Origin: Pelistega sp.
GTDB taxonomy: Bacteria > Pseudomonadota > Gammaproteobacteria > Burkholderiales > Burkholderiaceae_B
Direction: 5' to 3'
NCBI GenBank assembly: GCA_030538255.1
Contig: JAUNUI010000012.1
Coordinates: 17,490-81,489 of the forward strand
Length of the DNA: 64,000 nucleotides
Numbering within the stretch: the first letter of the stretch is position 1; the number at the start of each line of letters is the position of its first letter. This document shows positions 6,079-43,943 of the stretch, in pieces. The notes below the pieces were generated by a model. The model was not told the DNA's origin. It was given only the letters and a program-made list of their open reading frames with translations, and did not search any database. The position numbers and the translations under genes are program-made.

Positions 6079-6999
6079 TTAAGTTTTATGTAGTTGCAAA
6101 TTACTTAACCAGGCGGGCTTTTGCATACGACCAGCAGCCGATAGGCGCACCCAAGTTGCAAGCGCCACTACAATGCCGAAAGACTCCACAATCGCCGCGG
6201 GAACCCACATAATGATGCCACCAATACTTTGATCTTCAAGCGCCGTTATCGGCACAGCTCGGCCGCAGACATCAAACAAGGGATATAAATCATAAGGCAC
6301 GAAAGCGATATAGATGCCCGCCACAATCTGTGGTGCCATGGTTAAGATGGGCGAAATCACGCGCTCTGTGGGAGTCATCGCTGCCAGTTTGCCGCCTCGG
6401 CCATGGGTTTGCCACCAGCGACCGAAAGCTGTCGTCGCCGTAATCGGTCGCGCCACATAAGGGCGGCGATCAATCACCAAGTTCCAATAGAGAAAGCCAC
6501 TAATCACTACCGACCAGTTCATCACACGGTATAAGCGCCAGTCCAGCATGGAATAGAATTGCACGGTCGGCTCTAACCATACCAAGACCAGAAAGACAAA
6601 CATAAAGGGGACTAGGAATTTATTCGTCAGCACCGCTTCAATCACCTGGCAGGTGCGAGTTTGTCGGAAATTCTTTAAGGCGATTCGCCAAGAAAGTGGC
6701 ATACCTGCGCGTAACACTTGCCCTGGATAGGACAGCATGATTAACAGAGGGCCTAGATGATGTAGAACAAGATGCTGGGCGCGATGGGCAAAGAACACCC
6801 GCTCAGCGTAATAGTCCACATGCGTATGCATGGAGAGATAGAGCAGTACAAATCCTGTCCAGAAATACCACTGGCGCGCCCGAGCAACCTTATGGACCAA
6901 TGTCCCGCGCACAAATAATACGCCGCTGATTATAAACAGTAGCACCAAGGTGGGCGAAAATTCCCAGGGACTCATCCAATGACTTAATTCTAAATCCAT
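6079..6999 (-). CDS. cytochrome c oxidase assembly factor CtaG-like (caa3_CtaG family) membrane protein
   Basis: 306-aa polytopic protein with FFAHRAQHLVLHHLGPLLIMLSYP and DQSIGGIIMWVPAAI, which resemble the family's conserved blocks. Confidence 0.55.
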   Translation of the reverse strand: MDLELSHWMSPWEFSPTLVLLFIISGVLFVRGTLVHKVARARQWYFWTGFVLLYLSMHTHVDYYAERVFFAHRAQHLVLHHLGPLLIMLSYPGQVLRAGMPLSWRIALKNFRQTRTCQVIEAVLTNKFLVPFMFVFLVLVWLEPTVQFYSMLDWRLYRVMNWSVVISGFLYWNLVIDRRPYVARPITATTAFGRWWQTHGRGGKLAAMTPTERVISPILTMAPQIVAGIYIAFVPYDLYPLFDVCGRAVPITALEDQSIGGIIMWVPAAIVESFGIVVALATWVRLSAAGRMQKPAWLSNLQLHKT

Positions 7000-7208
7000 A
7001 CTAACTCATTAATTTAATGCAGTATTTTACCGAATTTATGCTTCTATGTGCGGATATTGTGGATTATATTGAGAGTCATATCAGGAAATTTACAAATAAG
7101 TTGTGATTCGCTTAGAGAGTAAACTAGGCGCTATAATTGATACGTTTCTGATGAGAAGATAGTCAACTCTGCTATCCCATCTCTCAAATTCTACTCTGGT
7201 GAAAACAA

Positions 7209-8408
7209 TTGACGATGGAAAACTTTGACTTTGATATTGCCATTCTTGGTGCTGGCCCTGTTGGTTTAGCGTTGGCGATTGGCTTAAGTAAACTCGCTGA
7301 AAAGAAGCCTGCAAACTCAACTCAAGCGCTGCGCATTGCCTTATTCCAAGGCCAACAAGTCCCTATCCCTCCTGAGAAAGACACGCGTGTCTTAGCCTTA
7401 AATCATGGCAGTCGTGTCTTCTTAGAGGCAATTGAGGCCTGGCCCAATAAGAGCACCGATATCAAGACCGTCCATGTGTCTCAGAAAGGGCGCCTTGGCC
7501 GCACCCTCATTACCGACGCAGAGATGGCGGTGCCACGCTTAGGTAGCATGGTGTCGTATGCGTATCTACATCAATCGCTGAGCACTCGCCTAGCCAATAC
7601 CCCAGTGACTATCTTATCGGGTGAGCTTGCCAGTGCCCAAGCGCCAGCACAAGATGATTCTTGTCAAAATATCGCTGGTGCTATGGTCACGCAAGGTGAG
7701 CACAAATACCGCGTGCGCTTAGTGATTCAATGTGACGGTTTACGCGCCCAAGATATTCAGCGTCAGTATGATCAGCATGCTTTGATTACCAGTGTCTATG
7801 TGCGCTATCCGCAACCAGGTTGGGCCTGGGAACGCTTTACGCAAGAAGGGCCGCTAGCTGTTCTCCCCCACCCTATTTTTCCTGGTGCTCAATCGATTGT
7901 ATGGGCAACGAGCCCGACTAAAGCACGTCAGCTCCTTGAGATGCCTGAGGCTGAGTTCGAGCAGGCTTTATTAGAGCACTTTGGTGATCGCTTGGGTCGC
8001 TTTACGCTGGCAGAAAAGCGGGCAATTTTCCCGCTCCATCTGAATGTAAATACGCATACCGTCAAACCCAGTATGGTGGTGATTGGTAATGCCGCCCAAA
8101 CTCTCCACCCAGTAGCGGGTCAAGGCTTAAACCTAGGCCTGCGTGATGTCGCGACGCTGCTAAACTGTCTCGCCCCTTGGTTAAATCATGTGCAACAAGA
8201 TGTGCAAACCTTCTTGCTGCGTTATCAAGAAGCGCGCAGCATTGATCGCCGTATTACTTGGGAATTAACTGATTTCTTGCCACGAGTTTTCACCACCAAG
8301 AATCCCCTAGTGGAGCATGCTTGTGGTTTGAGTTTGCTCGCCATGGATATGGCAAAACCTCTACGTCAACCCTTAACCACGCAGCTCTTACAAGGTTTTA
8401 GGCCTTAA
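7209..8408 (+). CDS. FAD-dependent monooxygenase, UbiH/UbiF/VisC/COQ6 family
   Basis: Carries the GAGPVGLALA dinucleotide fold and the GNAAQTLHPVAGQGLNLGLRD motif. Confidence 0.85.
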   Translation: MTMENFDFDIAILGAGPVGLALAIGLSKLAEKKPANSTQALRIALFQGQQVPIPPEKDTRVLALNHGSRVFLEAIEAWPNKSTDIKTVHVSQKGRLGRTLITDAEMAVPRLGSMVSYAYLHQSLSTRLANTPVTILSGELASAQAPAQDDSCQNIAGAMVTQGEHKYRVRLVIQCDGLRAQDIQRQYDQHALITSVYVRYPQPGWAWERFTQEGPLAVLPHPIFPGAQSIVWATSPTKARQLLEMPEAEFEQALLEHFGDRLGRFTLAEKRAIFPLHLNVNTHTVKPSMVVIGNAAQTLHPVAGQGLNLGLRDVATLLNCLAPWLNHVQQDVQTFLLRYQEARSIDRRITWELTDFLPRVFTTKNPLVEHACGLSLLAMDMAKPLRQPLTTQLLQGFRP

Positions 8409-8725: not shown

Positions 8726-9727
8726 ATGAAAATTGGTCCTTGGCAACTTCCCAACCCTATCTTTGTAGCGCCCATGGCTGGCGTTACTGATCGTCCCTTC
8801 CGTCAGCTTTGTAAGCGACTAGGGGCGGGTTATGCTGTGTCCGAAATGGCGGCCAGCAATCCTAAACTCTGGGATAGTGTCAAGACCTCTCGTCGACTCA
8901 ACCATGACGGAGAAATCAATCCTATCGCCGTGCAAATTGCGGGGGCTGATCCAGAGATGATGGCGCAAGCCGCGGTATTTAATATTAATAAGGGTGCGAA
9001 AATCATCGATATTAATATGGGCTGTCCCGTTAAGAAAGTATGCAGCGTCGCTTCGGGTTCGGCACTTTTGCGTGATGAAAACCTGGTGGTAGCTATTTTG
9101 CAGGCGGTGGTGAAGGCTTGTCAGCCTTTTGAAGTGCCTGTCACCTTGAAGACCCGCACGGGCTGGGATCACTCACATAAAAATGCCTTGCGCATTGGTG
9201 AGCTCGCGCAAGATATTGGTATCAGTGCGCTGACCTTACATGGGCGCACACGCGCTGATCTTTACACAGGTGAGGCAGAATACGATACTATTAAACAAGT
9301 TAAGCAAGCTTTAGAGATTCCCGTGGTCGCCAATGGCGATATTGATTCTCCACAGAAAGCGAAATTCGTGCTTGACTACACAGGTGCTGATGCTATTATG
9401 GTTGGCCGTGCGGCTCAAGGTAATCCATGGATTTTTCAACAAATCAATCATTACCTTCAGACTGACACTCAACTCGCACCGCCAGATTTTGCCCATATGC
9501 AAGAGATCCTTCTTGGCCATCTGCATGAGCATTATCAGTTTTATGGAGAGCATACAGGCGTGCGTAGTGCACGTAAACATATAGCCTGGTATGTGTCACA
9601 CTTGCCACAAGCGCAAGCATTTATTGATGAGATGAATCAGATTAACACGAGCGCAGAACAATATACGCTGGTGGAGAACTGGTTTTCTCAATTAATTGAT
9701 CAGCACGATCTAGCTCTTACTCATTAA
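8726..9727 (+). CDS. dusB: tRNA-dihydrouridine synthase B
   Basis: FVAPMAGVTDRPFR...INMGCP...; 333 aa; followed by fis, the classic dusB-fis arrangement. Confidence 0.9.
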   Translation: MKIGPWQLPNPIFVAPMAGVTDRPFRQLCKRLGAGYAVSEMAASNPKLWDSVKTSRRLNHDGEINPIAVQIAGADPEMMAQAAVFNINKGAKIIDINMGCPVKKVCSVASGSALLRDENLVVAILQAVVKACQPFEVPVTLKTRTGWDHSHKNALRIGELAQDIGISALTLHGRTRADLYTGEAEYDTIKQVKQALEIPVVANGDIDSPQKAKFVLDYTGADAIMVGRAAQGNPWIFQQINHYLQTDTQLAPPDFAHMQEILLGHLHEHYQFYGEHTGVRSARKHIAWYVSHLPQAQAFIDEMNQINTSAEQYTLVENWFSQLIDQHDLALTH

Positions 9728-9736
9728 CCCAATAAT

Positions 9737-9973
9737 ATGACAAAACCAATACCAATTGACGAATGTATTCGTACTAATTTAGCCGCCTATTTTAAAGAAT
9801 TAGGGCAAAATCCCGCTAATAATATTTGGGATATGGTGATGAGCAGCGTTGAAAAAGCCATGCTCGAAACCGTTATGCAGCAAGCTGAAGGCAATCAATC
9901 GAAGGCCTCAGAGATGCTTGGCATTACGCGCAATACATTACGTAAAAAACTTCTTTCTCATCATCTTATTTAA
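9737..9973 (+). CDS. fis: Fis-family DNA-binding protein
   Basis: 78 aa with the C-terminal [24 protein letters not shown]. Confidence 0.85.
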
Positions 9974-9981
9974 GACGCATC

Positions 9982-11571
9982 ATGAAATTATCTACTGCTT
10001 TGTTATCGGTTTCAGATAAAACCGGGATTGTTGAATTTGCTCAAGCGCTTGCGGCACGTGGCATTAAATTACTGTCTACAGGTGGCACCGCTGCCCTGCT
10101 TAAGCAAGCGGGCCTTGAGGTCACCGAGGTCGCTGAGCACACGGGCTCACCTGAAATCTTAGACGGTCGTGTGAAAACTCTGCATCCTAAAATTCATGGT
10201 GGTCTATTAGGTCGTCGTGACGATGAAAAACACTTAGCGACAATGGCTGAGCATGGTATTGCAGCGATTGATTTGCTTGTGGTGAACTTATACCCTTTCC
10301 GTGAAACCATTGCTAAGCCGAATTGCAGCTTTGCCGATGCGGTCGAGAATATTGATATTGGTGGCCCAGCCATGTTGCGTGCTGCGGCTAAAAATCACGG
10401 TACGGAAGTTGGCGGTGTAACCGTAGTTATCGATCCTTCTGACTATACTCAAGTATTGCAAGAGATTGATGAATTTGGTCAGCCTTCATATGGTTTACGC
10501 TTAAAATTAGCCACTAAGACTTATGCCCATACTGCGGCGTATGATGGTGCTATTGCCCAATACTTAAGCAGCTTAGTCGATGCTGAGCCGGCGCAAGATG
10601 CACAACCTACGCGTAAGCAATGGCCAAGTACCATTACCCTGCAATTACAGCAGCATCAAGAATTGCGTTACGGTGAGAATCCGCACCAACAAGCCGCCTT
10701 CTATTTAGATCCTATCACTGGTGAAGGTCTACTTGGTCGCTACCAACAATTGCAAGGCAAGGAATTGTCATACAACAATATTGCCGATGCGGATGCTGCT
10801 TGGGAATGTTCACGCAGCTTTGATGTGCCTGTCTGCGTTATCGTTAAGCACGCTAACCCTTGTGGTGTGGCGATTGCTGAGAATGCATTTGCTGCCTATC
10901 AGAAAGCTTTTAAGACCGACCCTACCTCAGCTTTCGGTGGCATTATCGCCTTCAACCGTACGGTTGATGTGCAAGTGGCGCAGGAAGTCAGCAAGCAATT
11001 TATGGAAGTTTTATTAGCCCCGGATTACACGCCCGAAGCTTTAGAACTCTTAGCTGCTAAGAAAAATGTGCGCGTATTAAAAGTCGCCAGCGGCTCAGCG
11101 CAGAACCCATTTGACGTGAAACGCGTCGGTGGTGGCTGGTTAGTACAAGATCCTGACGCTTTCGACGTACCCGTTGAGTCCCTCAAAGTCGTCACGAAAA
11201 AGCAACCGACCGAGCAACAATTGAAAGACTTGATGTTTGCCTGGAAAGTCGCGAAGTACGTGAAGTCGAATGCCATCGTATTCTGTGCCGACGGTATGAC
11301 CATGGGCGTCGGTGCGGGTCAAATGAGCCGTCTTGACTCAGCACGTATCGCGTCGATTAAGGCCGAAGCCAATGGTTTAAGCTTGAAAACCACTGCCGCG
11401 GCTTCAGATGCCTTCTTCCCTTTCCGTGATGGTCTCGATGTGATTGTGGCCGCCGGTGCCGATTGTATTATTCAGCCAGGTGGTAGTATCCGTGATGATG
11501 AAGTGATTGATGCCGCTAATGAACATGGTATTGCCATGGTCTACACAGGCACTCGTCATTTCCGTCACTAA
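9982..11571 (+). CDS. purH: bifunctional AICAR transformylase / IMP cyclohydrolase
   Basis: 529 aa. N-terminal MGS-like block [15 protein letters not shown]...[10 protein letters not shown] and C-terminal AICARFT block [11 protein letters not shown]...[10 protein letters not shown]. Confidence 0.95.
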
Positions 11572-36646: not shown

Positions 36647-36722
36647 GGGCTGGTAGCTCAGCCGGTAGAGCAGCGGACTTTTAATCCGTTGGTCCCGGGT
36701 TCGAATCCCGGCCAGCCCACCA
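36647..36722 (+). tRNA. tRNA-Lys (anticodon UUU)
   Basis: Hand-folded cloverleaf: acceptor GGGCTGG/CCAGCCC, D-arm GCTC..GAGC, anticodon arm GCGGA CTTTTAA TCCGT, T-arm CCGGG TTCGAAT CCCGG, encoded CCA. Confidence 0.95.
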
Positions 36723-36836: not shown

Positions 36837-37712
36837 CTAATTCAAAGCCTGATTCTGATTAATCGCCTCTGCTCGACGCAAGCGGCGCCCTTGGCCAAAT
36901 GTTTTATATAAGCGGGCTAGTCGTGGGCGATGCAGTAACCATAATTTAAAAGCAAATCTCAGCGCACCAATATTCCCCACCCAGTTACGGTAGATATGAC
37001 TTGTCTGTTCTCCTGCCACATTCACCCCATTGCTATCGGTGGCATAGAGATACTGAAACCCCTGCTCTTGAGCTATTTGCACATATTCAGGCTCATAGTA
37101 ACCTTGTGGCCAACAATAATGCTCACTGACAAAGCCTAATTGCTCACGCAAAATTTCTTTGCTCTGCTCCATCTCATGCAAGATTGCCGCTAGCTTACCT
37201 TCTTGATTTAATTGCTTATCCCAGCGGATATGGGTATGGCTATGACTATGAAATTCAAACGTCTTCTCATCATACATGCGACGCACTTCTTCCCAACGCA
37301 CAATAACCTCATCCGTCCGAGCATTATTTAAGCGCTGTTTACACTCATCATGTGTCGGACAGAATGGATAGGCCTGACTACCGTCAAGTGATGGCCGGGC
37401 CTCCTCATCATGCACCCAGCTAGTCACCAAGAACATGTGCGCCTTGAGTTTATATTTCTTCAAGATAGCATGCGCATAGACATAATTATCTAAGTAACCA
37501 TCATCGAACGTCAGCAACACCGACTTCTCAGGCACAGGTTTGCCATTTAAAAAGTCAGCGAATTGTTGGCTACTCAGCGTCGTATAACCATGATTGACCA
37601 GATAAGCCATCTGCGCCTCAAAGTTCTTCGGTGTGCAATTTAACACGCCCCCCGCAGGCGTCACGTGGTGATACATTAAGACGGGAACCAGCTTGGCAAA
37701 TTTGACAGTCAT
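36837..37712 (-). CDS. polysaccharide deacetylase (CE4, PgaB/IcaB-like N-terminal layout), no signal peptide
   Basis: PVLMYHHV...EKSVLLTFDDGY...FEFHSHSHTH. Trp/Arg-rich basic C-terminal tail. Paralogue of the next gene. Confidence 0.8.
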   Translation of the reverse strand: MTVKFAKLVPVLMYHHVTPAGGVLNCTPKNFEAQMAYLVNHGYTTLSSQQFADFLNGKPVPEKSVLLTFDDGYLDNYVYAHAILKKYKLKAHMFLVTSWVHDEEARPSLDGSQAYPFCPTHDECKQRLNNARTDEVIVRWEEVRRMYDEKTFEFHSHSHTHIRWDKQLNQEGKLAAILHEMEQSKEILREQLGFVSEHYCWPQGYYEPEYVQIAQEQGFQYLYATDSNGVNVAGEQTSHIYRNWVGNIGALRFAFKLWLLHRPRLARLYKTFGQGRRLRRAEAINQNQALN

Positions 37713-37827
37713 TGTTAGTCACTAGACCTTAGGTTTATAGGGCAAGGGGGATTATAATTTGGTAAAAAGGCACTGCCTGAACTTATGCGACCAGCTACAG
37801 AAATCACGGAGTCTATAGCTTGAGCAA

Positions 37828-38706
37828 CTAAGCTCTCGCCAAGCGCTTTTGCTCACGCGCTCGCTTTTTCTTTAATTTATACTGATTGTACATAGGGCCA
37901 AAGCGTAAATGCATAGCCCACCATAAGCGATGTTGCAACCACCAAGCGCCACGATTGCGCGCAGCTATACGATAAATATGATCGCCTGGACCAAAAGGCT
38001 GATTCATGCCATAGGCTTCGGTTGTATACAAGTAGTGAAAGCCCAGTTCCTTGGCAATCTTGACGTAATCATCATCAAAATAACCTTGCGGCCAACAGAA
38101 GTGCTCACTCACTTCACCAAGGTTTTGTCTTAAGGCGTCTTGAGACTGCTGAAGATCTTGACGAATTTGCTCATTCTTCTTCGCGCCACCCTCTTCGCGA
38201 TCCCAACGGATATGCGTATTGGTATGGCTATGAAACTCGAAGGTGCCGCATGCTTGCATCTCGCGTATCTCAGACCAGCGCAGCATAACCTCGCCAGCGC
38301 GACCAGATTGAATAATTTCTTTGCACTCATAATGACCAGGGCTTGCGGGCAAGGAATGTCCACTCGCCATGGTTGGACGCACTTCGCCCTCTTGCATCAG
38401 TCCAGTGATAATAAACATTAGGGCATGTAAATTATATTTTTCTAAGATCGGATGGGCGTAGACAAAATTATTTAAATAACCATCGTCAAAAGTCAGCACA
38501 ACAGATTTCTCAGACACGGGCTTGCCTCGCATAAAATCAGCAAACTGTTGGCCACTTAAAGTAGTGAATCCTTGTTGAGCTAATGAGCGCATCTGTGACT
38601 CAAAATTCTTCACGCTACAGCTCAATGAACCACCTTGTGGCGTGACATGGTGATACATTAAGACAGGAACTGTCTGGGCAGTCTTAGAATTGGCTATCAT
38701 CTCCAT
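37828..38706 (-). CDS. polysaccharide deacetylase (CE4), paralogue
   Basis: PVLMYHHV...EKSVVLTFDDGY...FEFHSHTNTH. Tail WWLQHRLWWAMHLRF...KLKKKRAREQKRLARA. No signal peptide. Confidence 0.8.
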   Translation of the reverse strand: MEMIANSKTAQTVPVLMYHHVTPQGGSLSCSVKNFESQMRSLAQQGFTTLSGQQFADFMRGKPVSEKSVVLTFDDGYLNNFVYAHPILEKYNLHALMFIITGLMQEGEVRPTMASGHSLPASPGHYECKEIIQSGRAGEVMLRWSEIREMQACGTFEFHSHTNTHIRWDREEGGAKKNEQIRQDLQQSQDALRQNLGEVSEHFCWPQGYFDDDYVKIAKELGFHYLYTTEAYGMNQPFGPGDHIYRIAARNRGAWWLQHRLWWAMHLRFGPMYNQYKLKKKRAREQKRLARA

Positions 38707-38758
38707 ACTCCTAGCAAAGCTCTTCTACACTAGTAAGGCCCTTATCTTATCTGTCCTT

Positions 38759-40924
38759 CTAACGTTCACGCGAGATTCGCACCTCAGCACCGCGACGCTT
38801 CACCTCAAGCCCTTCGGATTGCAGAATACGTAGACCTTCAAGGCCCTTAATATAGCTCGAGCCTTGCATCTGCATCACGCGAATTTTATTACGCATCACC
38901 ACAGGATTATGCTCTGGCATACCAAACATCCACACTTCATCCAAGATTCGTGCAGAATTAAAGTCATTCAAACTCAAAATCTCAGGGCCCAAACTAAGAA
39001 TATGACCTTCACGTCCAAATACAGGGATACTATGATTGTCGCAGTGATATTGAATCAGCTGACCACCCTCATAACGGGTGCTGGTATGTACGTCCCACCA
39101 AGCATCCCCCTCGGGCAGGTAGACCAAGGCCTCATCGCTCTCATCCAGAATTGGCGCCACCAATAACGATGGACCAAACATAAATTGCAATTCATAGTCA
39201 TGGGCGGCCTTATCCTTAGGAAAGGCCAATGGCATCATGCGCTGCACAGGTAGACCTGTACGCGTTGCATCCTCAATAATTCCTAAGACATACGGAATAA
39301 GGCGATAACGTAAGGTCATTAAGTTTTTAATCTTCTCTTGAGTCGCCTGATCAAACACAGTCGGTAAGCCTTGCGTATCAGCAGGCAAGATAAAACCTAA
39401 ACTAAATACGGCTAGACTCAAGGCGCGCAAATACAGATTTGGATCCTTAATATCGGCCCGTAATTCATGCATCTGTCCGACGATACCCGAAGCTTGCGCA
39501 CTTAATTGATGGCGCAATAATTGCTGCAAGCCTGCATAAGACTGCTCACACGCCTGCTTAATAAAAGGCGTGCGTTGTGCACTTAAGGAGAAGCTTGCAC
39601 GCAAAACCAGACCTTCAGTTGGCGTACGACCATAAGATGAGGCGGCAAATAATGACTGCTCTAATAATAGCGCATACAGCTGACGCAGCATGGCACCCGT
39701 CTCTTCTTGACGCGCATAGACACCATCAGGAATCTCAATTGGCATGACAATGCTTAAAGCAGTTTCGGTTTCTTCTAAAAGTTGCTCATGACGCTCTTGC
39801 CATAAGCGGTACGCATCACGATAACTTAAATCCAATAAACCGTATTGTTCTTTCTGGTGCTTGAAGACAAACGCCTTGCCCGACTCCTCAGTTAACAACC
39901 ACCCCCTATCTTCCAATTCCTCAAACAAGGGAGTACCCGCTATCACACCAGGGAAGGTTGGCAAGCAATAATGACGGCCCCCCTTAAGATAATCATTCAC
40001 AAAGCGGCGGCTATCGCCCAAGCGCTGCTCGTCCAAATCAAGGGACAATTTATCATGCTGAAAAGGCACTAAGGATGGCCCAGCAAACGACCAAGTATCT
40101 ACAGGGTAGCCTGCTTGGATCAATTGTTCACTCAGTGCCGCAAGCTCATCAATACTTTGCGCTTCTTGCTGTTGCAACCATACGCCCATCGCCTTCAATG
40201 GCGGCTGACCTGCACGACCACGCAATGCACTGTATTGATTAGCGATTTCGCTAGGGTCACCAATAAAGATAAATAAGTCTAAGACTGAGTCTTCAAACTG
40301 TATTCGATAACTATCGGGATCTTCGCTGGCAATATGATGACTAACACGGTTCAGGCTATTCGCATACAGCCCCCAACCTTGCAGACTCCAAGCCAATGGC
40401 AAGTAAGCGAACTGACTGAGATCTGAGACCAGCATCTGACCGCGACGATTAAAGCCACCATCGGTACGACCAAGGCCATATATCGTCTCATCAGCCGCCA
40501 GTTGCCATATGATAGACCAAGCGTTGCTCTGCTCATCCGCATCGTGCTGCGTGGCTAAGCTTGCATCAAAATCTTGTGCCGTCTGCAAAATCAAGCGCTC
40601 ATCGTGATAAAAGGCCAGGCGAAAGGGATTGCTCTGAATATGCAATACAATATTGCCAGCATTGCCTTGTTTCAAGCGCCAACCATCGTCCACAGCCTCA
40701 CACTCGAACTCACCACTGATTTCAGTGCGAGCTAACAAAAGGTCGGCTCGTTGTTGAGCGCGCAGACTTAACTGGGCATCATCCAATTTCTTGGGCAAAC
40801 CACAGCGTAAACGATATACGCCATTCGCATGCGCCTCAATACGCAATATATTACCTTGCTCAGTATGAAACTCACAGTAAGATGCCGTTGACTTGTGTAG
40901 TGCTAAATTATTGATATGAATCAC
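38759..40924 (-). CDS. glycoside hydrolase family 31-fold protein, apparently lacking the catalytic aspartates
   Basis: GH31-like blocks: ETIYGLGRT, LDLFIFIGDPSEIANQYSALRGRAGQPPLKAMGVW, RYRLIPYVLG, LQFMFGPSLLVAPI...VYLPEGDAWWDV. The positions I align to the nucleophile and acid/base motifs read SIVMPIEIP and FIKQAC. GTG start, no signal peptide. Confidence 0.65.
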   Translation of the reverse strand: MIHINNLALHKSTASYCEFHTEQGNILRIEAHANGVYRLRCGLPKKLDDAQLSLRAQQRADLLLARTEISGEFECEAVDDGWRLKQGNAGNIVLHIQSNPFRLAFYHDERLILQTAQDFDASLATQHDADEQSNAWSIIWQLAADETIYGLGRTDGGFNRRGQMLVSDLSQFAYLPLAWSLQGWGLYANSLNRVSHHIASEDPDSYRIQFEDSVLDLFIFIGDPSEIANQYSALRGRAGQPPLKAMGVWLQQQEAQSIDELAALSEQLIQAGYPVDTWSFAGPSLVPFQHDKLSLDLDEQRLGDSRRFVNDYLKGGRHYCLPTFPGVIAGTPLFEELEDRGWLLTEESGKAFVFKHQKEQYGLLDLSYRDAYRLWQERHEQLLEETETALSIVMPIEIPDGVYARQEETGAMLRQLYALLLEQSLFAASSYGRTPTEGLVLRASFSLSAQRTPFIKQACEQSYAGLQQLLRHQLSAQASGIVGQMHELRADIKDPNLYLRALSLAVFSLGFILPADTQGLPTVFDQATQEKIKNLMTLRYRLIPYVLGIIEDATRTGLPVQRMMPLAFPKDKAAHDYELQFMFGPSLLVAPILDESDEALVYLPEGDAWWDVHTSTRYEGGQLIQYHCDNHSIPVFGREGHILSLGPEILSLNDFNSARILDEVWMFGMPEHNPVVMRNKIRVMQMQGSSYIKGLEGLRILQSEGLEVKRRGAEVRISRER

Positions 40925-41424
40925 GTTGACCCGTTAATCGTCGTAAAGTGGACGGACATTAAAAATCCTAAACCCCTATTCTGACCGATTTCGCACAAAA
41001 TTTAAATCAATTTAGTGAATTTTAGATAAATAAATGCATCCAAGGACTTGTTTTATAAGTTCTTTTTAAATTCTAAGCATCTATAATGATTCTTATATCG
41101 CTTTTTCCCACTTTATCTGTTCATGACTAAAACCACACTCACGCATACCAGTAAGTGAAGAATTCAGTCGATTCATTAATCCTAGTGAGAAATAGATTTT
41201 TTCTAACAATCAGAGAAAAAATATAATCTAAGTAAAAATAATAAATGCTATAGAAAGAAACTCTCGCATGCGCATCAAGTAGAACCATTCTAGCGCCAAT
41301 CCGTAACGGTATGATTATCTTAATCATCTGCTTAGATACCTACTTAGTCACCCCCTCCAAAGCCCATATTCCTTATATTTTTTGCGCCAAGTTCCCCTTA
41401 CCTGTGCATTACCTGCACTTTTCC

Positions 41425-41516
41425 TTATCTCGGCAGAATGGCCTGTCTATCTCGGCAGAATGGTCTAATTATCGCGGCAGAATCGCCTGCCATAGATCAC
41501 GCTCAGAATGATCTAA
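41425..41516 (-). repeat. three downstream re-copies (22, 22 and 48 nt) of the mnmC 3' end, each ending in a stop codon
   Basis: Plus-strand units: ttatctcggcagaatggcctgt, ctatctcggcagaatggtctaa, and ttatcgcggcagaatcgcctgccatagatcacgctcagaatgatctaa. The last is identical over 37 nt to the true tail at 41517-41553. Each decodes as ILPR-stop. Confidence 0.95.
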
Positions 41517-43943
41517 TTATCGCGGCAGAATCGCCTGCCATAGATCACGCTCAATCGGCAGCGGCTCCCCTTCTAAGTAGGCAGCAATCACGTCTCCTGC
41601 CAAGCTACTCCAGGTCAGACCATGCGAGGCATAGGCACAGGCCAAGAAAATCCCAGGAGCATGCGCTAATGGACCAATCACTGGCATACGACCTTGTACC
41701 ACGGCGCGACTACCCGCCCAACCACCAAGTTGGCCTTGCGCCCTTAAACGAGGCAAATCCAAACCGAGATCCAAGGGTAACTTTCGCAGAATAGCCTCTT
41801 GACCTTCTTCACTTACCTGTGGATTGACTTGATTATGGATATACGTGCCGCCCATGACACAATAATTTTCAAAAGACGGCAGCAAATAGCCTTGACCCGC
41901 GACAATACATTGTGGCCCCCCTCCTACTAAATCAGCAGGTACATGCATGGCTTCACCTCCCATAGGATGCAAGGTATCGAATCGACTTATAGCATTCACC
42001 ACTTGACCTGATTTTAAGGTTTTAAGATCTAAATGACTCCGCCGCAAAAGCTCCGCGGTGTTCAGTGCTGTCGCTAAAATCACTTGTGAACTGCGAGCTA
42101 TTTCAAGTCCACTGCTCGACATAATAGCGCACTGTGTTAGCGGATCATTCGCTGACTGCGGGTCATTCCTTATTAAGCGCAGGCTGTCAACTTCATCACA
42201 AACCAACTCAATCAAGGGATGCGATAAGAGCTTATGTATCAGTCGTAGCGGTGATATCTGCATACCATAGGGGAAAAAGGCACCGTGCTGCTCCAATGAC
42301 AAGCCTGAAAGTGTTGAGGCCTCTTGTGCACTCACCAGACGTACCCATTCTTTAGGGAAATTTAATGCTTGAACCGCCTCGAGAATGTCTTTAGCATGCC
42401 CCTTATCGCGGTTTAGCTCAAGTGTGCCACATGGATTAATGCCCGCTTCTTCACCCCAAGCTTTCCAGCGCGCATGAGCACGTAATGTACCTGCACGACT
42501 TAAGCGTGCTTTATGACTATCATCGGCCGTAATTAGCGGTGTTAAGGCAGCTGATAGCCTACCCGAATGACTAAGCGCTTGCTGATTGGTAAACTGCGTA
42601 TCAATCACCTTAACCGGCCAACCACGCAAGGCCAAGGCATAAGCAATCCCAGCTCCCGCTAAACCTGCTCCAATAACACAAGCCTCACGTGCATGCTGTG
42701 CCGCGACCTGAATAGCCGGTCGCTTACTTTGCCCTTGTAGAAGGAGCGCAGCAGCAATACCTATGCATTTATCACTATCATGCGATGATGCATCTACTGG
42801 CTCCGTAGACTGGTATTGCCTGCGGGTTAAGGAGCAACTTCCATGCTCCTGATTGGGGGGTACATGTAATGATTCAGTAGACTTATACTGTGGCTGCTTA
42901 TACTGTGACTGCTTATACTGTGGCTGATCAGAGTCACGACCAGTAGGTATCTCATGCCATTGTGTATGGAGTTGCCCTCCTAGCTCATGCAGCACATGAG
43001 CTTCATCTGCCGCCACTATCGCCCAAACCTTAGGCTGGCTTAAGCGTAAGATATCACGCCAGCGCTGCTGCTGAGCTTGGGCATCGACATATTGCTTTGC
43101 GAGACCGTCAAGATGCAACACCACACCATCAATATTCGCCATCACTTGGCGCCATGAATGTTGCGAACCATATAAGAGGCTAAGTGTAAATCGTCCCTCA
43201 GCCAGTTCTAAGCGATGCATACCTGGTAATAATAAGGGCCACTGTGAAGCCAAGTCCTGCAGCTCCTTACAATCGGGAGCTAAAGTTTGAAATAAAAGCT
43301 GGGCGTCTTCGGCTGCTAAAGGATAAGATTCGACGACCACGAGATGCATAGCAGGACGCTGCCCCATTGCAGTGAGACTTGTCCTAGCTGCCATGCTAGG
43401 TACTGTCGAGTCACGTGTTGCTCCAGGCACATGCCCCTGCCCTGTCGCCTCTTGGCTAGTCCTAGACGTGGCCGCTATGTGTCCTGTCTTCTCTTGATTT
43501 ATCGTAGGCGCAGTCGCTTTGTGCCACGCTTGCCACAAGCGATATAAGGCAATAATCGGTGCCACGCCCATGCCACTATCTATTGCAATACTGACATTGC
43601 TTGTAGCAAGATGCCCTGCTTGATTAGCCCCAACTTGAATTAGTTCTACCAGATTAGATTCAACTTTATTGGATTCAACATGCTTTGCCTCAACTTGATT
43701 AGCCCCAACTTGAATTAACTCAACTTGATTTTGTGCTTGCAGCGTTAGGCTACCATACCAACACTGCTCAGGGCTGTGGATGGAGTAATGCTCAGCATGT
43801 AGTTCTAAAGTAGAAGCTTGAATCAATTCTTTATCCTTAATTGGTGTACTGCAACGTTGATTTAACCACGGCATTATCTTAGGGCTCTTATGCTGCTTGC
43901 CCTCAAGCATCACCCTGACATTCGCGCTACTAAGCCTAAGCAC
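41517..43943 (-). CDS. mnmC: bifunctional tRNA mnm5s2U biosynthesis protein MnmC (methyltransferase-like N-domain plus FAD oxidoreductase), expanded to 808 aa
   Basis: C-terminal DAO domain CVIGAGLAGAGIAYALALRG... The N-domain is colinear with the MnmC MT domain (DSGMGVAP.., WPLLLPGMHRLELAEGRFTLSLLYG, HLDGLA). Several low-complexity or repeat insertions are present. The start is uncertain (GTG at 43943 or internal Met codons). Confidence 0.75.
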   Translation of the reverse strand: MLRLSSANVRVMLEGKQHKSPKIMPWLNQRCSTPIKDKELIQASTLELHAEHYSIHSPEQCWYGSLTLQAQNQVELIQVGANQVEAKHVESNKVESNLVELIQVGANQAGHLATSNVSIAIDSGMGVAPIIALYRLWQAWHKATAPTINQEKTGHIAATSRTSQEATGQGHVPGATRDSTVPSMAARTSLTAMGQRPAMHLVVVESYPLAAEDAQLLFQTLAPDCKELQDLASQWPLLLPGMHRLELAEGRFTLSLLYGSQHSWRQVMANIDGVVLHLDGLAKQYVDAQAQQQRWRDILRLSQPKVWAIVAADEAHVLHELGGQLHTQWHEIPTGRDSDQPQYKQSQYKQPQYKSTESLHVPPNQEHGSCSLTRRQYQSTEPVDASSHDSDKCIGIAAALLLQGQSKRPAIQVAAQHAREACVIGAGLAGAGIAYALALRGWPVKVIDTQFTNQQALSHSGRLSAALTPLITADDSHKARLSRAGTLRAHARWKAWGEEAGINPCGTLELNRDKGHAKDILEAVQALNFPKEWVRLVSAQEASTLSGLSLEQHGAFFPYGMQISPLRLIHKLLSHPLIELVCDEVDSLRLIRNDPQSANDPLTQCAIMSSSGLEIARSSQVILATALNTAELLRRSHLDLKTLKSGQVVNAISRFDTLHPMGGEAMHVPADLVGGGPQCIVAGQGYLLPSFENYCVMGGTYIHNQVNPQVSEEGQEAILRKLPLDLGLDLPRLRAQGQLGGWAGSRAVVQGRMPVIGPLAHAPGIFLACAYASHGLTWSSLAGDVIAAYLEGEPLPIERDLWQAILPR
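42882..42926 (-). repeat. in-frame 15-nt x3 tandem repeat inside mnmC
   Basis: cttatactgtggctg / cttatactgtgactg / cttatactgtggctg, encoding QPQYK QSQYK QPQYK. Confidence 0.95.
43623..43727 (-). repeat. in-frame 15-nt x7 tandem repeat inside the mnmC N-terminal region
   Basis: Units such as attagccccaacttg occur twice exactly, 75 nt apart. The tract encodes the pentapeptide array NQVEL IQVGA NQVEA KHVES NKVES NLVEL IQVGA. Confidence 0.9.

Follow-up and report, generated by a model that had tools for sequence, protein, structure and literature searches.

A GH31-fold protein lacking the canonical active site beside two tandem CE4 deacetylases of putative LPS-core type in Pelistega

The DNA analysed here, a stretch of 64,000 nt from a Pelistega sp. 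(the window, with positions counted from its first letter), belongs to a genome of 2.95 Mb with a completeness score of 100% and carries three neighbouring genes on the (−) strand. The first encodes a protein with the fold of glycoside hydrolase family 31 (GH31), and the other two encode polysaccharide deacetylases of carbohydrate esterase family 4 (CE4), named CE4-A and CE4-B. Sequence alignments and a structure model indicate that the GH31-fold protein lacks the canonical active site, and that the selective constraint on it and its relatives has shifted to the distal C-terminal domain. The two deacetylases are orthologous to a protein encoded in a putative lipopolysaccharide (LPS)-core cluster of related bacteria. 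We propose with fair confidence that genes with separate histories, for a GH31-like pseudo-glycosidase and for LPS-type CE4 deacetylases, are juxtaposed at this locus and probably transcribed together.

A preliminary description of the locus, drawn up from the sequence alone, had placed one GH31-fold gene and two CE4 genes here, in agreement with both the open reading frames (ORFs; 40924..38759, 38706..37828, and 37712..36837, all on the (−) strand) and their Pfam domains. The features on which the argument rests are the following:

38759..40924, (−) strand: gene of the GH31-fold protein (GH31-like gene), 721 aa, GTG start, without the canonical catalytic machinery (predicted pseudo-glycosidase); domains PF13802, PF01055, and PF21365.
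39746..39748, (−) strand: codon of Val393, aligned with the GH31 nucleophile Asp (KTD of YicI) by phmmer and MAFFT.
39551..39553, (−) strand: codon of Ala458, aligned with the GH31 general acid/base Asp (HWGGD of YicI) by phmmer and MAFFT.
38762..38989, (−) strand: residues 646-721, which form the distal C-terminal domain, a hyper-conserved beta-sandwich with family-specific insertions.
37828..38706, (−) strand: CE4-A, a PgaB/IcaB-type polysaccharide deacetylase, 292 aa; PF01522, with intact catalytic and metal-binding motifs.
36837..37712, (−) strand: CE4-B, tandem paralog of CE4-A, 291 aa; PF01522, with intact motifs.

The 721-aa protein is a member of GH31 by its Pfam domains, all above their cut-offs (75.9 bits for PF01055, with a cut-off of 23.5, 85.5 for PF21365, and 35.3 for PF13802), and by its four-domain architecture; none of the three proteins of the locus reached an NCBIfam equivalog. 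Its AlphaFold2 model was of high confidence (predicted local distance difference test, pLDDT, 95.1; predicted TM-score 0.94), and Foldseek gave as the top match, over the full length, the alpha-xylosidase YicI (8t7z/1we5, TM-score 0.81, E 1e-50 to 1e-53), to which phmmer also aligned it (YicI of Escherichia coli and Klebsiella, 1we5/8t7z, E 1e-32 to 1e-34). YicI (1we5, 1xsi, 8t7z) is cytoplasmic, of comparable length, and the closest relative found in both sequence and structure, and the two proteins share an N-terminal beta-sandwich, a (beta/alpha)8 barrel, and proximal and distal C-domains. They differ in the active site, where the Pelistega protein has Val in place of the nucleophile Asp and Ala in place of the acid/base Asp, and where other residues stand at the Lys, Arg, Trp, and His positions of the −1 subsite; in the distal C-domain, which is its most conserved part and bears invariant family-specific insertions; and in the absence of xyloside or other sugar-use genes near its gene.

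In the phmmer alignment, the KTD nucleophile motif of YicI falls on S-I-V, with the Asp replaced by Val393, the Asp of HWGGDC falls on Ala458 of FIKQAC, and SHDIGG corresponds to MHELRA. Identical catalytic columns were obtained when 29 members of the GH31-like family were aligned by MAFFT with a canonical set of 56 GH31 representatives, gathered by an exhaustive search with HMMER, and in the AlphaFold2 model Val393 comes directly after barrel strand 389-392 and Ala458 after strand 455-457, the usual places of the GH31 catalytic residues. The preliminary description had claimed from a remembered alignment that both Asp residues were lost, and it was right about the Ala of FIKQAC, about the MHELRA counterpart, and about the loss of the nucleophile, although the Met or Pro that it named as the nucleophile replacement lies one or two residues away from the aligned Val393. 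Of the checks that it suggested, the PF01055 match and the structure model confirmed the GH31 fold, and the alignments placed no Asp at the catalytic positions.

The loss extends over the whole pocket and the whole family. Asp occupies the nucleophile column in 89% of the canonical sequences, versus 11 of the 29 family members (S, A, E, N, or V in the rest), and the acid/base column likewise in 89%, versus 4 of 29 (R, Q, A, or S in the rest). The neighbouring Trp456 and Gly457 of the WxGD motif are gone too, and the other columns of the −1 subsite have all been replaced and vary within the family, from the Asp and Trp after strand 2, Trp322, and Lys391 (of KTD) to the substrate-contacting Arg443, Trp484 and Asp487 (WxHD), Arg512, and His514. 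Residues with a structural role in the fold, such as Asp365, Arg500, and conserved Gly and Pro, were retained. None of the marks of an active retaining alpha-glycosidase (nucleophile, acid/base, −1 subsite) was therefore found, and, with these residues lost or nearly all lost, the protein is predicted to be unable to act as one. A pseudoenzyme that regulates an active GH31 paralog was also considered and rejected, since the gene is the sole PF01055 match in the genome and leaves no such paralog to regulate.

The part of the protein that selection has kept lies elsewhere. Among orthologs that are about 48% identical overall, the last ~70 residues are almost invariant in the alignment, with an amino-acid identity of 0.90 for residues 652-721 vs 0.53 for residues 1-651. 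Synonymous codon identity was equal in both parts (0.42 in the C-terminal part and 0.43 in the rest), in genomes whose GC content at third codon positions ranges from 0.34 to 0.91, which points to selection at the protein level and not to an embedded nucleic-acid element; an RNA or DNA element behind this conservation was consequently rejected, the segment having ordinary synonymous identity and no Rfam match. When family-specific positions were defined by a conservation of 90% or more in the family and of less than 25% in canonical GH31 sequences, 38 of the 55 were located in the 76-residue distal C-domain, which also contains two invariant family-specific insertions (FG.P at 667-670 and SSYIKGLEGLRI at 689-700). 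The stretch 441-460, part of the old active site, is among the least conserved of the family. A basic, nucleic-acid-binding C-domain was discarded from its composition (12 K+R vs 10 D+E), and in the ESM Atlas the only matches to the C-domain were C-terminal domains of GH31 proteins and, weakly, unrelated folds. On these comparisons, the selective constraint of the GH31-like family sits in the distal C-domain, which most likely forms a binding surface on which a putative conserved partner docks. The suggestion that the pseudo-enzyme serves as a carbohydrate-binding subunit was weakened, as the canonical sugar-binding residues have been replaced and the pocket region is among the least conserved.

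The GH31-like gene has a stable position in the Alcaligenaceae. A tblastn search with the window proteins on 80 related loci of this family found the order suhB (divergent), mnmC, GH31-like gene in 74 of them, the other six being short upstream or without a match. The lineage is present in most of the Alcaligenaceae sampled, including Bordetella pertussis (Q7VV73, annotated as 'glycosyl hydrolase'), Bordetella bronchiseptica, and Achromobacter, with its members annotated as 'glycosyl hydrolase' or 'alpha-xylosidase'. A probe made from the C-domain, run against a sample of 400 genomes of the order, gave strong matches only in the window's own family (eight of the 10 genomes sampled, with none in both genomes of one genus) and five weak matches in the other 390 genomes (E 2e-10 to 5e-6). 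In these searches, the GH31-like family thus appears confined to the Alcaligenaceae, where its complete four-domain fold is maintained in a protein predicted to be non-functional as a retaining alpha-glycosidase. Literature searches on the Bordetella GH31-like protein, on GH31 pseudoenzymes, and on Q7VV73 found nothing relevant, and no paper in the literature searched was found to treat a conserved non-catalytic bacterial GH31 lineage.

The two deacetylases, in turn, keep all their catalytic motifs. CE4-A and CE4-B matched PF01522 with 96 and 84 bits, respectively, both above its cut-off, are 48% identical to each other, and both carry VLMYHHV, TFDDGY, HSH(T/S)xTH (H-x-x-x-H), and CWPQGY, so that the NodB-homology domain, TFDD, H-x-x-x-H, and N-terminal YHH assign them to the PgaB/IcaB subtype of CE4, paralogous and with retained motifs as first described. 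The AlphaFold2 model of CE4-A reached a pLDDT of 95.1, and the top fold matches were PgaB (3vus/4f9d), IcaB (4wcj), PplD (6dq3), and BpsB (5bu6), with Foldseek E values of ~1e-17. In agreement with the original reading, a hydropathy heuristic detected neither a signal-peptide-like N-terminus nor a transmembrane segment in any of the three proteins, and both CE4s appear cytoplasmic by this measure. Their C-terminal tails are rich in Trp, Arg, and Lys, as had been noted (net charge +12 and +10), and were modelled as two helices (254-265 and 269-291); the amphipathic character attributed to them is less marked, with a hydrophobic moment that is only moderate (0.37-0.50). Relative to the CE4-2 paralogs described below, CE4-A and CE4-B have an insertion of ~22 residues. 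As a separate observation, the CE4-B ortholog of the nearest relative (L002:3183-4160) carries an acidic low-complexity insertion of ~42 residues before the conserved IYR motif, which is absent from the window copy.

The N-terminal de-N-acetylase domains of PgaB, IcaB, and BpsB (3vus, 4f9d, 4wcj, 4u10, 5bu6) are the best matches to the window CE4s in both sequence and fold, sharing (L/M)xYHH, TFDD, and HxxxH. However, those proteins are exported and act on secreted poly-N-acetylglucosamine (PNAG), whereas the window CE4s have no signal peptide, end in two cationic C-terminal helices, and have no fused glycoside-hydrolase domain. Their scores against the models for PNAG de-N-acetylases proper were low (95.5 bits for TIGR03938, cut-off 321.9; 66.5 for TIGR03933, cut-off 248). 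PNAG was rejected as the substrate because the genome has no PgaC/IcaA synthase, the best PgaC match scoring 65.7 bits against a cut-off of 422.

Homolog searches detected CE4 orthologs that are ~50% identical throughout the Alcaligenaceae (50-52% to CE4-A in Bordetella, Achromobacter, and Pusillimonas), with exactly one strong ortholog in each of the 10 other genomes examined. In the window genome, CE4-A and CE4-B were the only strong copies, together with a distant paralog on contig C19. In Bordetella holmesii, the ortholog lies in the order lpxO (divergent), dnaE, GT4, CE4, GT4, CE4-2, GT4, a 414-aa protein, and an MsbA-like ATP-binding cassette (ABC) transporter, where GT4 stands for glycosyltransferases of family 4 and CE4-2 for a second deacetylase gene; in Pusillimonas and Achromobacter M1 a CE4-2-type match was also found ~1.6-2.2 kb from the CE4 ortholog. 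The CE4 tree separated the orthologous group from CE4-2 as a clade with a support of 100/100, and the cationic tail, the length, and the motifs are common to CE4-A, CE4-B, and the cluster-resident orthologs. For the Bordetella avium ortholog, the source gives the name 'Lipopolysaccharide core oligosaccharide biosynthesis protein'.

We read the B. holmesii cluster as an LPS-core cluster. One gene of the Bordetella core cluster is said to have been described as a deacetylase by Geurtsen et al. in 2009. Published work lends indirect support to an LPS-core role of the CE4s, as does the name of the B. avium ortholog: the LPS gene table of Kerstersia shows two deacetylases interleaved with core glycosyltransferases beside the O-antigen ligase (PMC6461280), the core of B. 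pertussis contains two glucosamine (GlcN) residues and one galactosaminuronic acid (GalNA) (PMC10743493), and mutants in BP2328 and BP2330 of its core cluster have truncated lipooligosaccharide (PMC6531889). CE4-A and CE4-B resemble the deacetylase of this cluster (BP2328-BP2331 region; Geurtsen et al. 2009, cited in PMC6531889 and PMC10743493) in having ~50% identical single-copy orthologs, placed between GT4 genes in B. holmesii, and differ from it in that they stand behind the GH31-like gene, are duplicated, and are detached from the glycosyltransferases, whose orthologs lie on other contigs. By orthology they thus belong to the group of Alcaligenaceae LPS-core cluster deacetylases, as tandem duplicates, it would seem, of the single-copy gene interleaved with GT4s in B. 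holmesii, and from this we infer an LPS-core role. Most likely, they would de-N-acetylate an amino sugar, N-acetylglucosamine (GlcNAc) or N-acetylgalactosaminuronic acid (GalNAcA), while the lipid A-core is being built on the cytoplasmic side of the inner membrane, to which their cationic, Trp-rich C-terminal helices would anchor them. This orthology offers a more ordinary predicted substrate than the new intracellular glycan that had been put forward, and argues against the latter.

The LPS cluster is dispersed in the window genome. A GT4 and CE4-2 pair lies on contig C19. The first GT4 has its ortholog, with 53% identity, on contig C21, where the neighbouring genes are pgi, pgm, and those of a WbaP-like transferase and an epimerase, and an IS3-type transposase is only two ORFs away (locus L117, G000:C21:26000-41000; ORFs 6862-7980 and 9440-10291); this setting fits a rearrangement of the LPS genes here.

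That these deacetylases have another substrate, such as chito-oligosaccharides, peptidoglycan precursors, or an undecaprenyl-phosphate-linked amino sugar (ArnD, for comparison, modifies a lipid-linked sugar), and not the LPS core, seems to us an unlikely but not negligible alternative. The PgaB/IcaB/PplD-type fold serves several GlcNAc-containing polymers and linkage units, the window genes lie outside any LPS cluster, the cationic helices would suit a lipid-linked substrate equally well, and the duplication could reflect two substrates. However, the window CE4s have as single-copy orthologs a gene located between GT4s in the putative LPS-core cluster, one of which carries an LPS-core name; ArnD was only a remote structural match (8t0j, TM-score 0.36), and the genome has no PNAG synthase.

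The association between the CE4 genes and the GH31-like gene is much more restricted than either gene. A CE4 lies downstream of the GH31-like gene in 15 of the 80 loci, from Pelistega, one Advenella group, an Alcaligenaceae metagenome-assembled genome (MAG), and Brackiella, and two copies were found only in the window and in L002, so the trio does not hold as the conserved module that had been envisaged. In the other loci that extend downstream, no CE4 follows the GH31-like gene, and in B. holmesii metNIQ takes this place. Downstream of metNIQ, B. holmesii has two tandem IS481-type transposase ORFs of 316 aa each (L072:15495-17494), the first of them confirmed by Pfam.

In the GH31-like tree, every locus where a CE4 adjoins the GH31-like gene belongs to a single clade (support of 99 in the Shimodaira–Hasegawa-like approximate likelihood ratio test), which also includes the Advenella kashmirensis group, without an adjacent CE4. 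The branching order inside this clade was not resolved; one relocation together with one loss could account for the distribution, and the tree gave no sign of repeated independent recruitment of a CE4. The CE4 tree places one L002 copy with CE4-A and the other with CE4-B, and CE4-B and the second L002 copy group with the CE4 of Pelistega suis, Pelistega europaea, and Pelistega indica (support 86/98), so that the duplication may predate the Pelistega radiation. We picture an ancestor of Pelistega, Advenella, and Brackiella in which a CE4 would have lain, or moved, behind the GH31-like gene, with a later duplication in the lineage of the window. The function of the GH31-like family would be independent of the CE4s, to judge by its lineage-wide presence, and its old sugar pocket is not conserved.

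A single CE4 without the catalytic motifs stands behind the GH31-like gene in P. suis, P. europaea, P. indica, and one Pelistega MAG:

L004:12133-12981, L005:12137-12991, L008:12148-12990, L009:12175-13020: motif-less CE4 genes of the cultured Pelistega species and the MAG.

In these proteins, TFDDG has become TF(D/E)GG, HSHTHTH has become HSFAHTQ, and LMYHHV has become LRYRHV, with the loss of the Asp-His-His metal triad and of one N-terminal His. They are the only strong CE4 ortholog in three of the four Pelistega genomes, those that were searched. The genes are intact, with a proportion of nonsynonymous differences (pN) of 0.12-0.29 vs a saturated proportion of synonymous ones (pS) of 0.70-0.80, which indicates purifying selection and makes this CE4 a candidate pseudoenzyme. 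A conserved protein that has the CE4 fold and lacks the catalytic residues is already known in BA3943 of Bacillus anthracis (7bkf, 6hm9), although BA3943 is a remote structural relative (TM-score ~0.33) of another CE4 subtype, and the window copies keep all motifs.

Several of these data weigh against the juxtaposition of separate histories and its LPS-core role. The B. holmesii cluster has two CE4 genes, either or neither of which could be the deacetylase studied in B. pertussis, so that the tie from the window CE4s to that experimentally studied gene is indirect. By the trees, the gene may have moved from the LPS cluster to the GH31 locus or in the reverse direction. Furthermore, no more than ~10 nt separate the stop of the GH31-like gene from the start of the CE4 in Advenella and P. 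suis, and both this spacing and the purifying selection on a CE4 devoid of metal ligands beside the GH31-like gene would fit a functional tie between the two proteins; they are the strongest arguments left for a physical link in this clade.

Such a tie is the core of another explanation, in which, at least in the clade of Pelistega, Advenella, and Brackiella, the GH31 pseudo-enzyme would be the non-catalytic partner or substrate-presenting subunit of the CE4s, with which it would form a cytoplasmic complex for de-N-acetylation. A comparable arrangement is known from PelA and PgaB, in which a CE4 deacetylase is encoded together with a glycoside-hydrolase-fold module. The PelA and PgaB modules are fused, periplasmic, and both catalytic, and their hydrolase comes from other families; here, in contrast, the proteins are separate and apparently cytoplasmic, the one with the hydrolase fold is predicted to be non-catalytic, and only one clade has them paired. 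In the window, the three genes share the strand, are separated by gaps of 52 bp (GH31-like gene to CE4-A) and 115 bp (CE4-A to CE4-B), and have no predicted terminator between them, all of which makes their co-transcription likely. The gaps of under ~10 nt in Advenella and P. suis, an adjacency maintained across a clade whose GH31-like proteins have diverged to ~50% identity, and the selection on the CE4 without a metal triad in four Pelistega genomes, which suggests a non-catalytic role, also speak for such a complex. Nevertheless, we judge a complex of this kind improbable, since the genes are unlinked in most Alcaligenaceae, with unrelated genes such as metNIQ behind the GH31-like gene, the adjacency is compatible with a single historical event instead of repeated recruitment, and the GH31 pocket, a poorly conserved region, no longer has its canonical sugar-binding residues.

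That the GH31-like protein is still an enzyme, with an active site rebuilt from other acidic residues or a new one involving the C-domain and with an unspecified substrate, is an explanation that we doubt even more. It would account for the strong purifying selection over the whole protein, for its confident and compact fold, and for the charged barrel residues that are invariant in the family (D276, D339, R340, D365, D370, D400, R405, E437, R451, H486, E551, R555), and it could draw on related lineages (P0129, P0131-P0136), in which the motifs are lost stepwise and not all-or-none. Yet the strand-4 (D/S/A/E/N/V) and strand-6 (R/D/Q/A/S) positions vary freely, which is unexpected for a catalytic site, the stretch 441-460 is one of the least conserved, and the distal C-domain, not the barrel, holds most of the positions whose conservation is specific to the family. 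Regarding those related lineages, the distant GH31 relatives P0129, P0131, P0132, P0135, and P0136 (~30% identity) show a graded loss of motifs, with both catalytic motifs retained in P0129, the acid/base motif alone in P0135, and neither in the others; catalysis in this branch of GH31 may have been lost in steps.

Finally, we give little credence to a more elaborate arrangement, in which the GH31-like pseudo-glycosidase would dock through its C-domain on the envelope-biogenesis machinery and be complexed with the LPS-core CE4 in Pelistega, Advenella, and Brackiella, the dead CE4 being kept as a partner; if true, the pair of pseudo-enzymes would form a regulatory or scaffolding unit of LPS core assembly, with its GH31-like member also present in Bordetella pathogens.

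The juxtaposed genes are flanked in the window by the following features:

36647-36722, (+) strand: tRNA-Lys(UUU), convergent with the operon end and a flank marker outside the unit (ARAGORN; Rfam tRNA, 77.8 bits).
40925..41516: intergenic gap that separates the GH31-like gene from mnmC, AT-rich, 592 bp, GC 0.36.
41517..43943, (−) strand: mnmC, the upstream neighbour of the GH31-like gene (tblastn synteny).

The tRNA-Lys and the AT-rich gap had been described correctly, as had the lack of a glycosyltransferase, exporter, or regulator among the ORFs of the cluster. The operon promoter is presumably located in the 592-bp gap, where promoter and terminator consensus matches were weak only and no Rfam family was matched. 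No clear Shine-Dalgarno sequence was seen ahead of the GTG start of the GH31-like gene, and a 12-codon upstream ORF whose stop overlaps this GTG was rejected as a feature, its ATG not being conserved in the 90%-identical relative L001. The ~175 nt located 5' of the GH31-like start (window 40925-41100, compared with L001:1-178) are 92% identical to those of L001, whose GH31-like protein is 90% identical. At the mnmC-proximal end of the gap (window 41420-41560), there are repeat copies of the 3' end of mnmC, consisting of GATTCTGCCGCGATAATTAG-like units. The MnmC of the window (41517-43943) has 808 aa, and its tblastn matches to relatives start at around residue 195, often in two blocks, a pattern that low-complexity insertions specific to the lineage, in the linker and close to the N-terminus, would explain. 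The closest relatives of the locus (90% and 82% identity) are uncultured Pelistega MAGs, and all relatives are Alcaligenaceae. A search of sequencing runs listed no RNA run, with partial DNA matches in wastewater-type metagenomes only.

In conclusion, these findings amount to no new kind of system, and their interest lies in the families concerned. GH31 is among the best-studied glycosidase families, and a predicted non-catalytic bacterial lineage within the Alcaligenaceae corrects the annotation of its members as 'glycosyl hydrolase' or 'alpha-xylosidase', while the erased pocket and the selection on the distal C-domain point to a specific, testable surface. The orthology of CE4-A and CE4-B provides a predicted role for two unannotated deacetylases, and the conserved motif-less CE4 of the cultured Pelistega species is a second candidate pseudoenzyme. 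In addition, the locus illustrates the dispersal and partial duplication of a putative LPS-core cluster in a small-genome relative.

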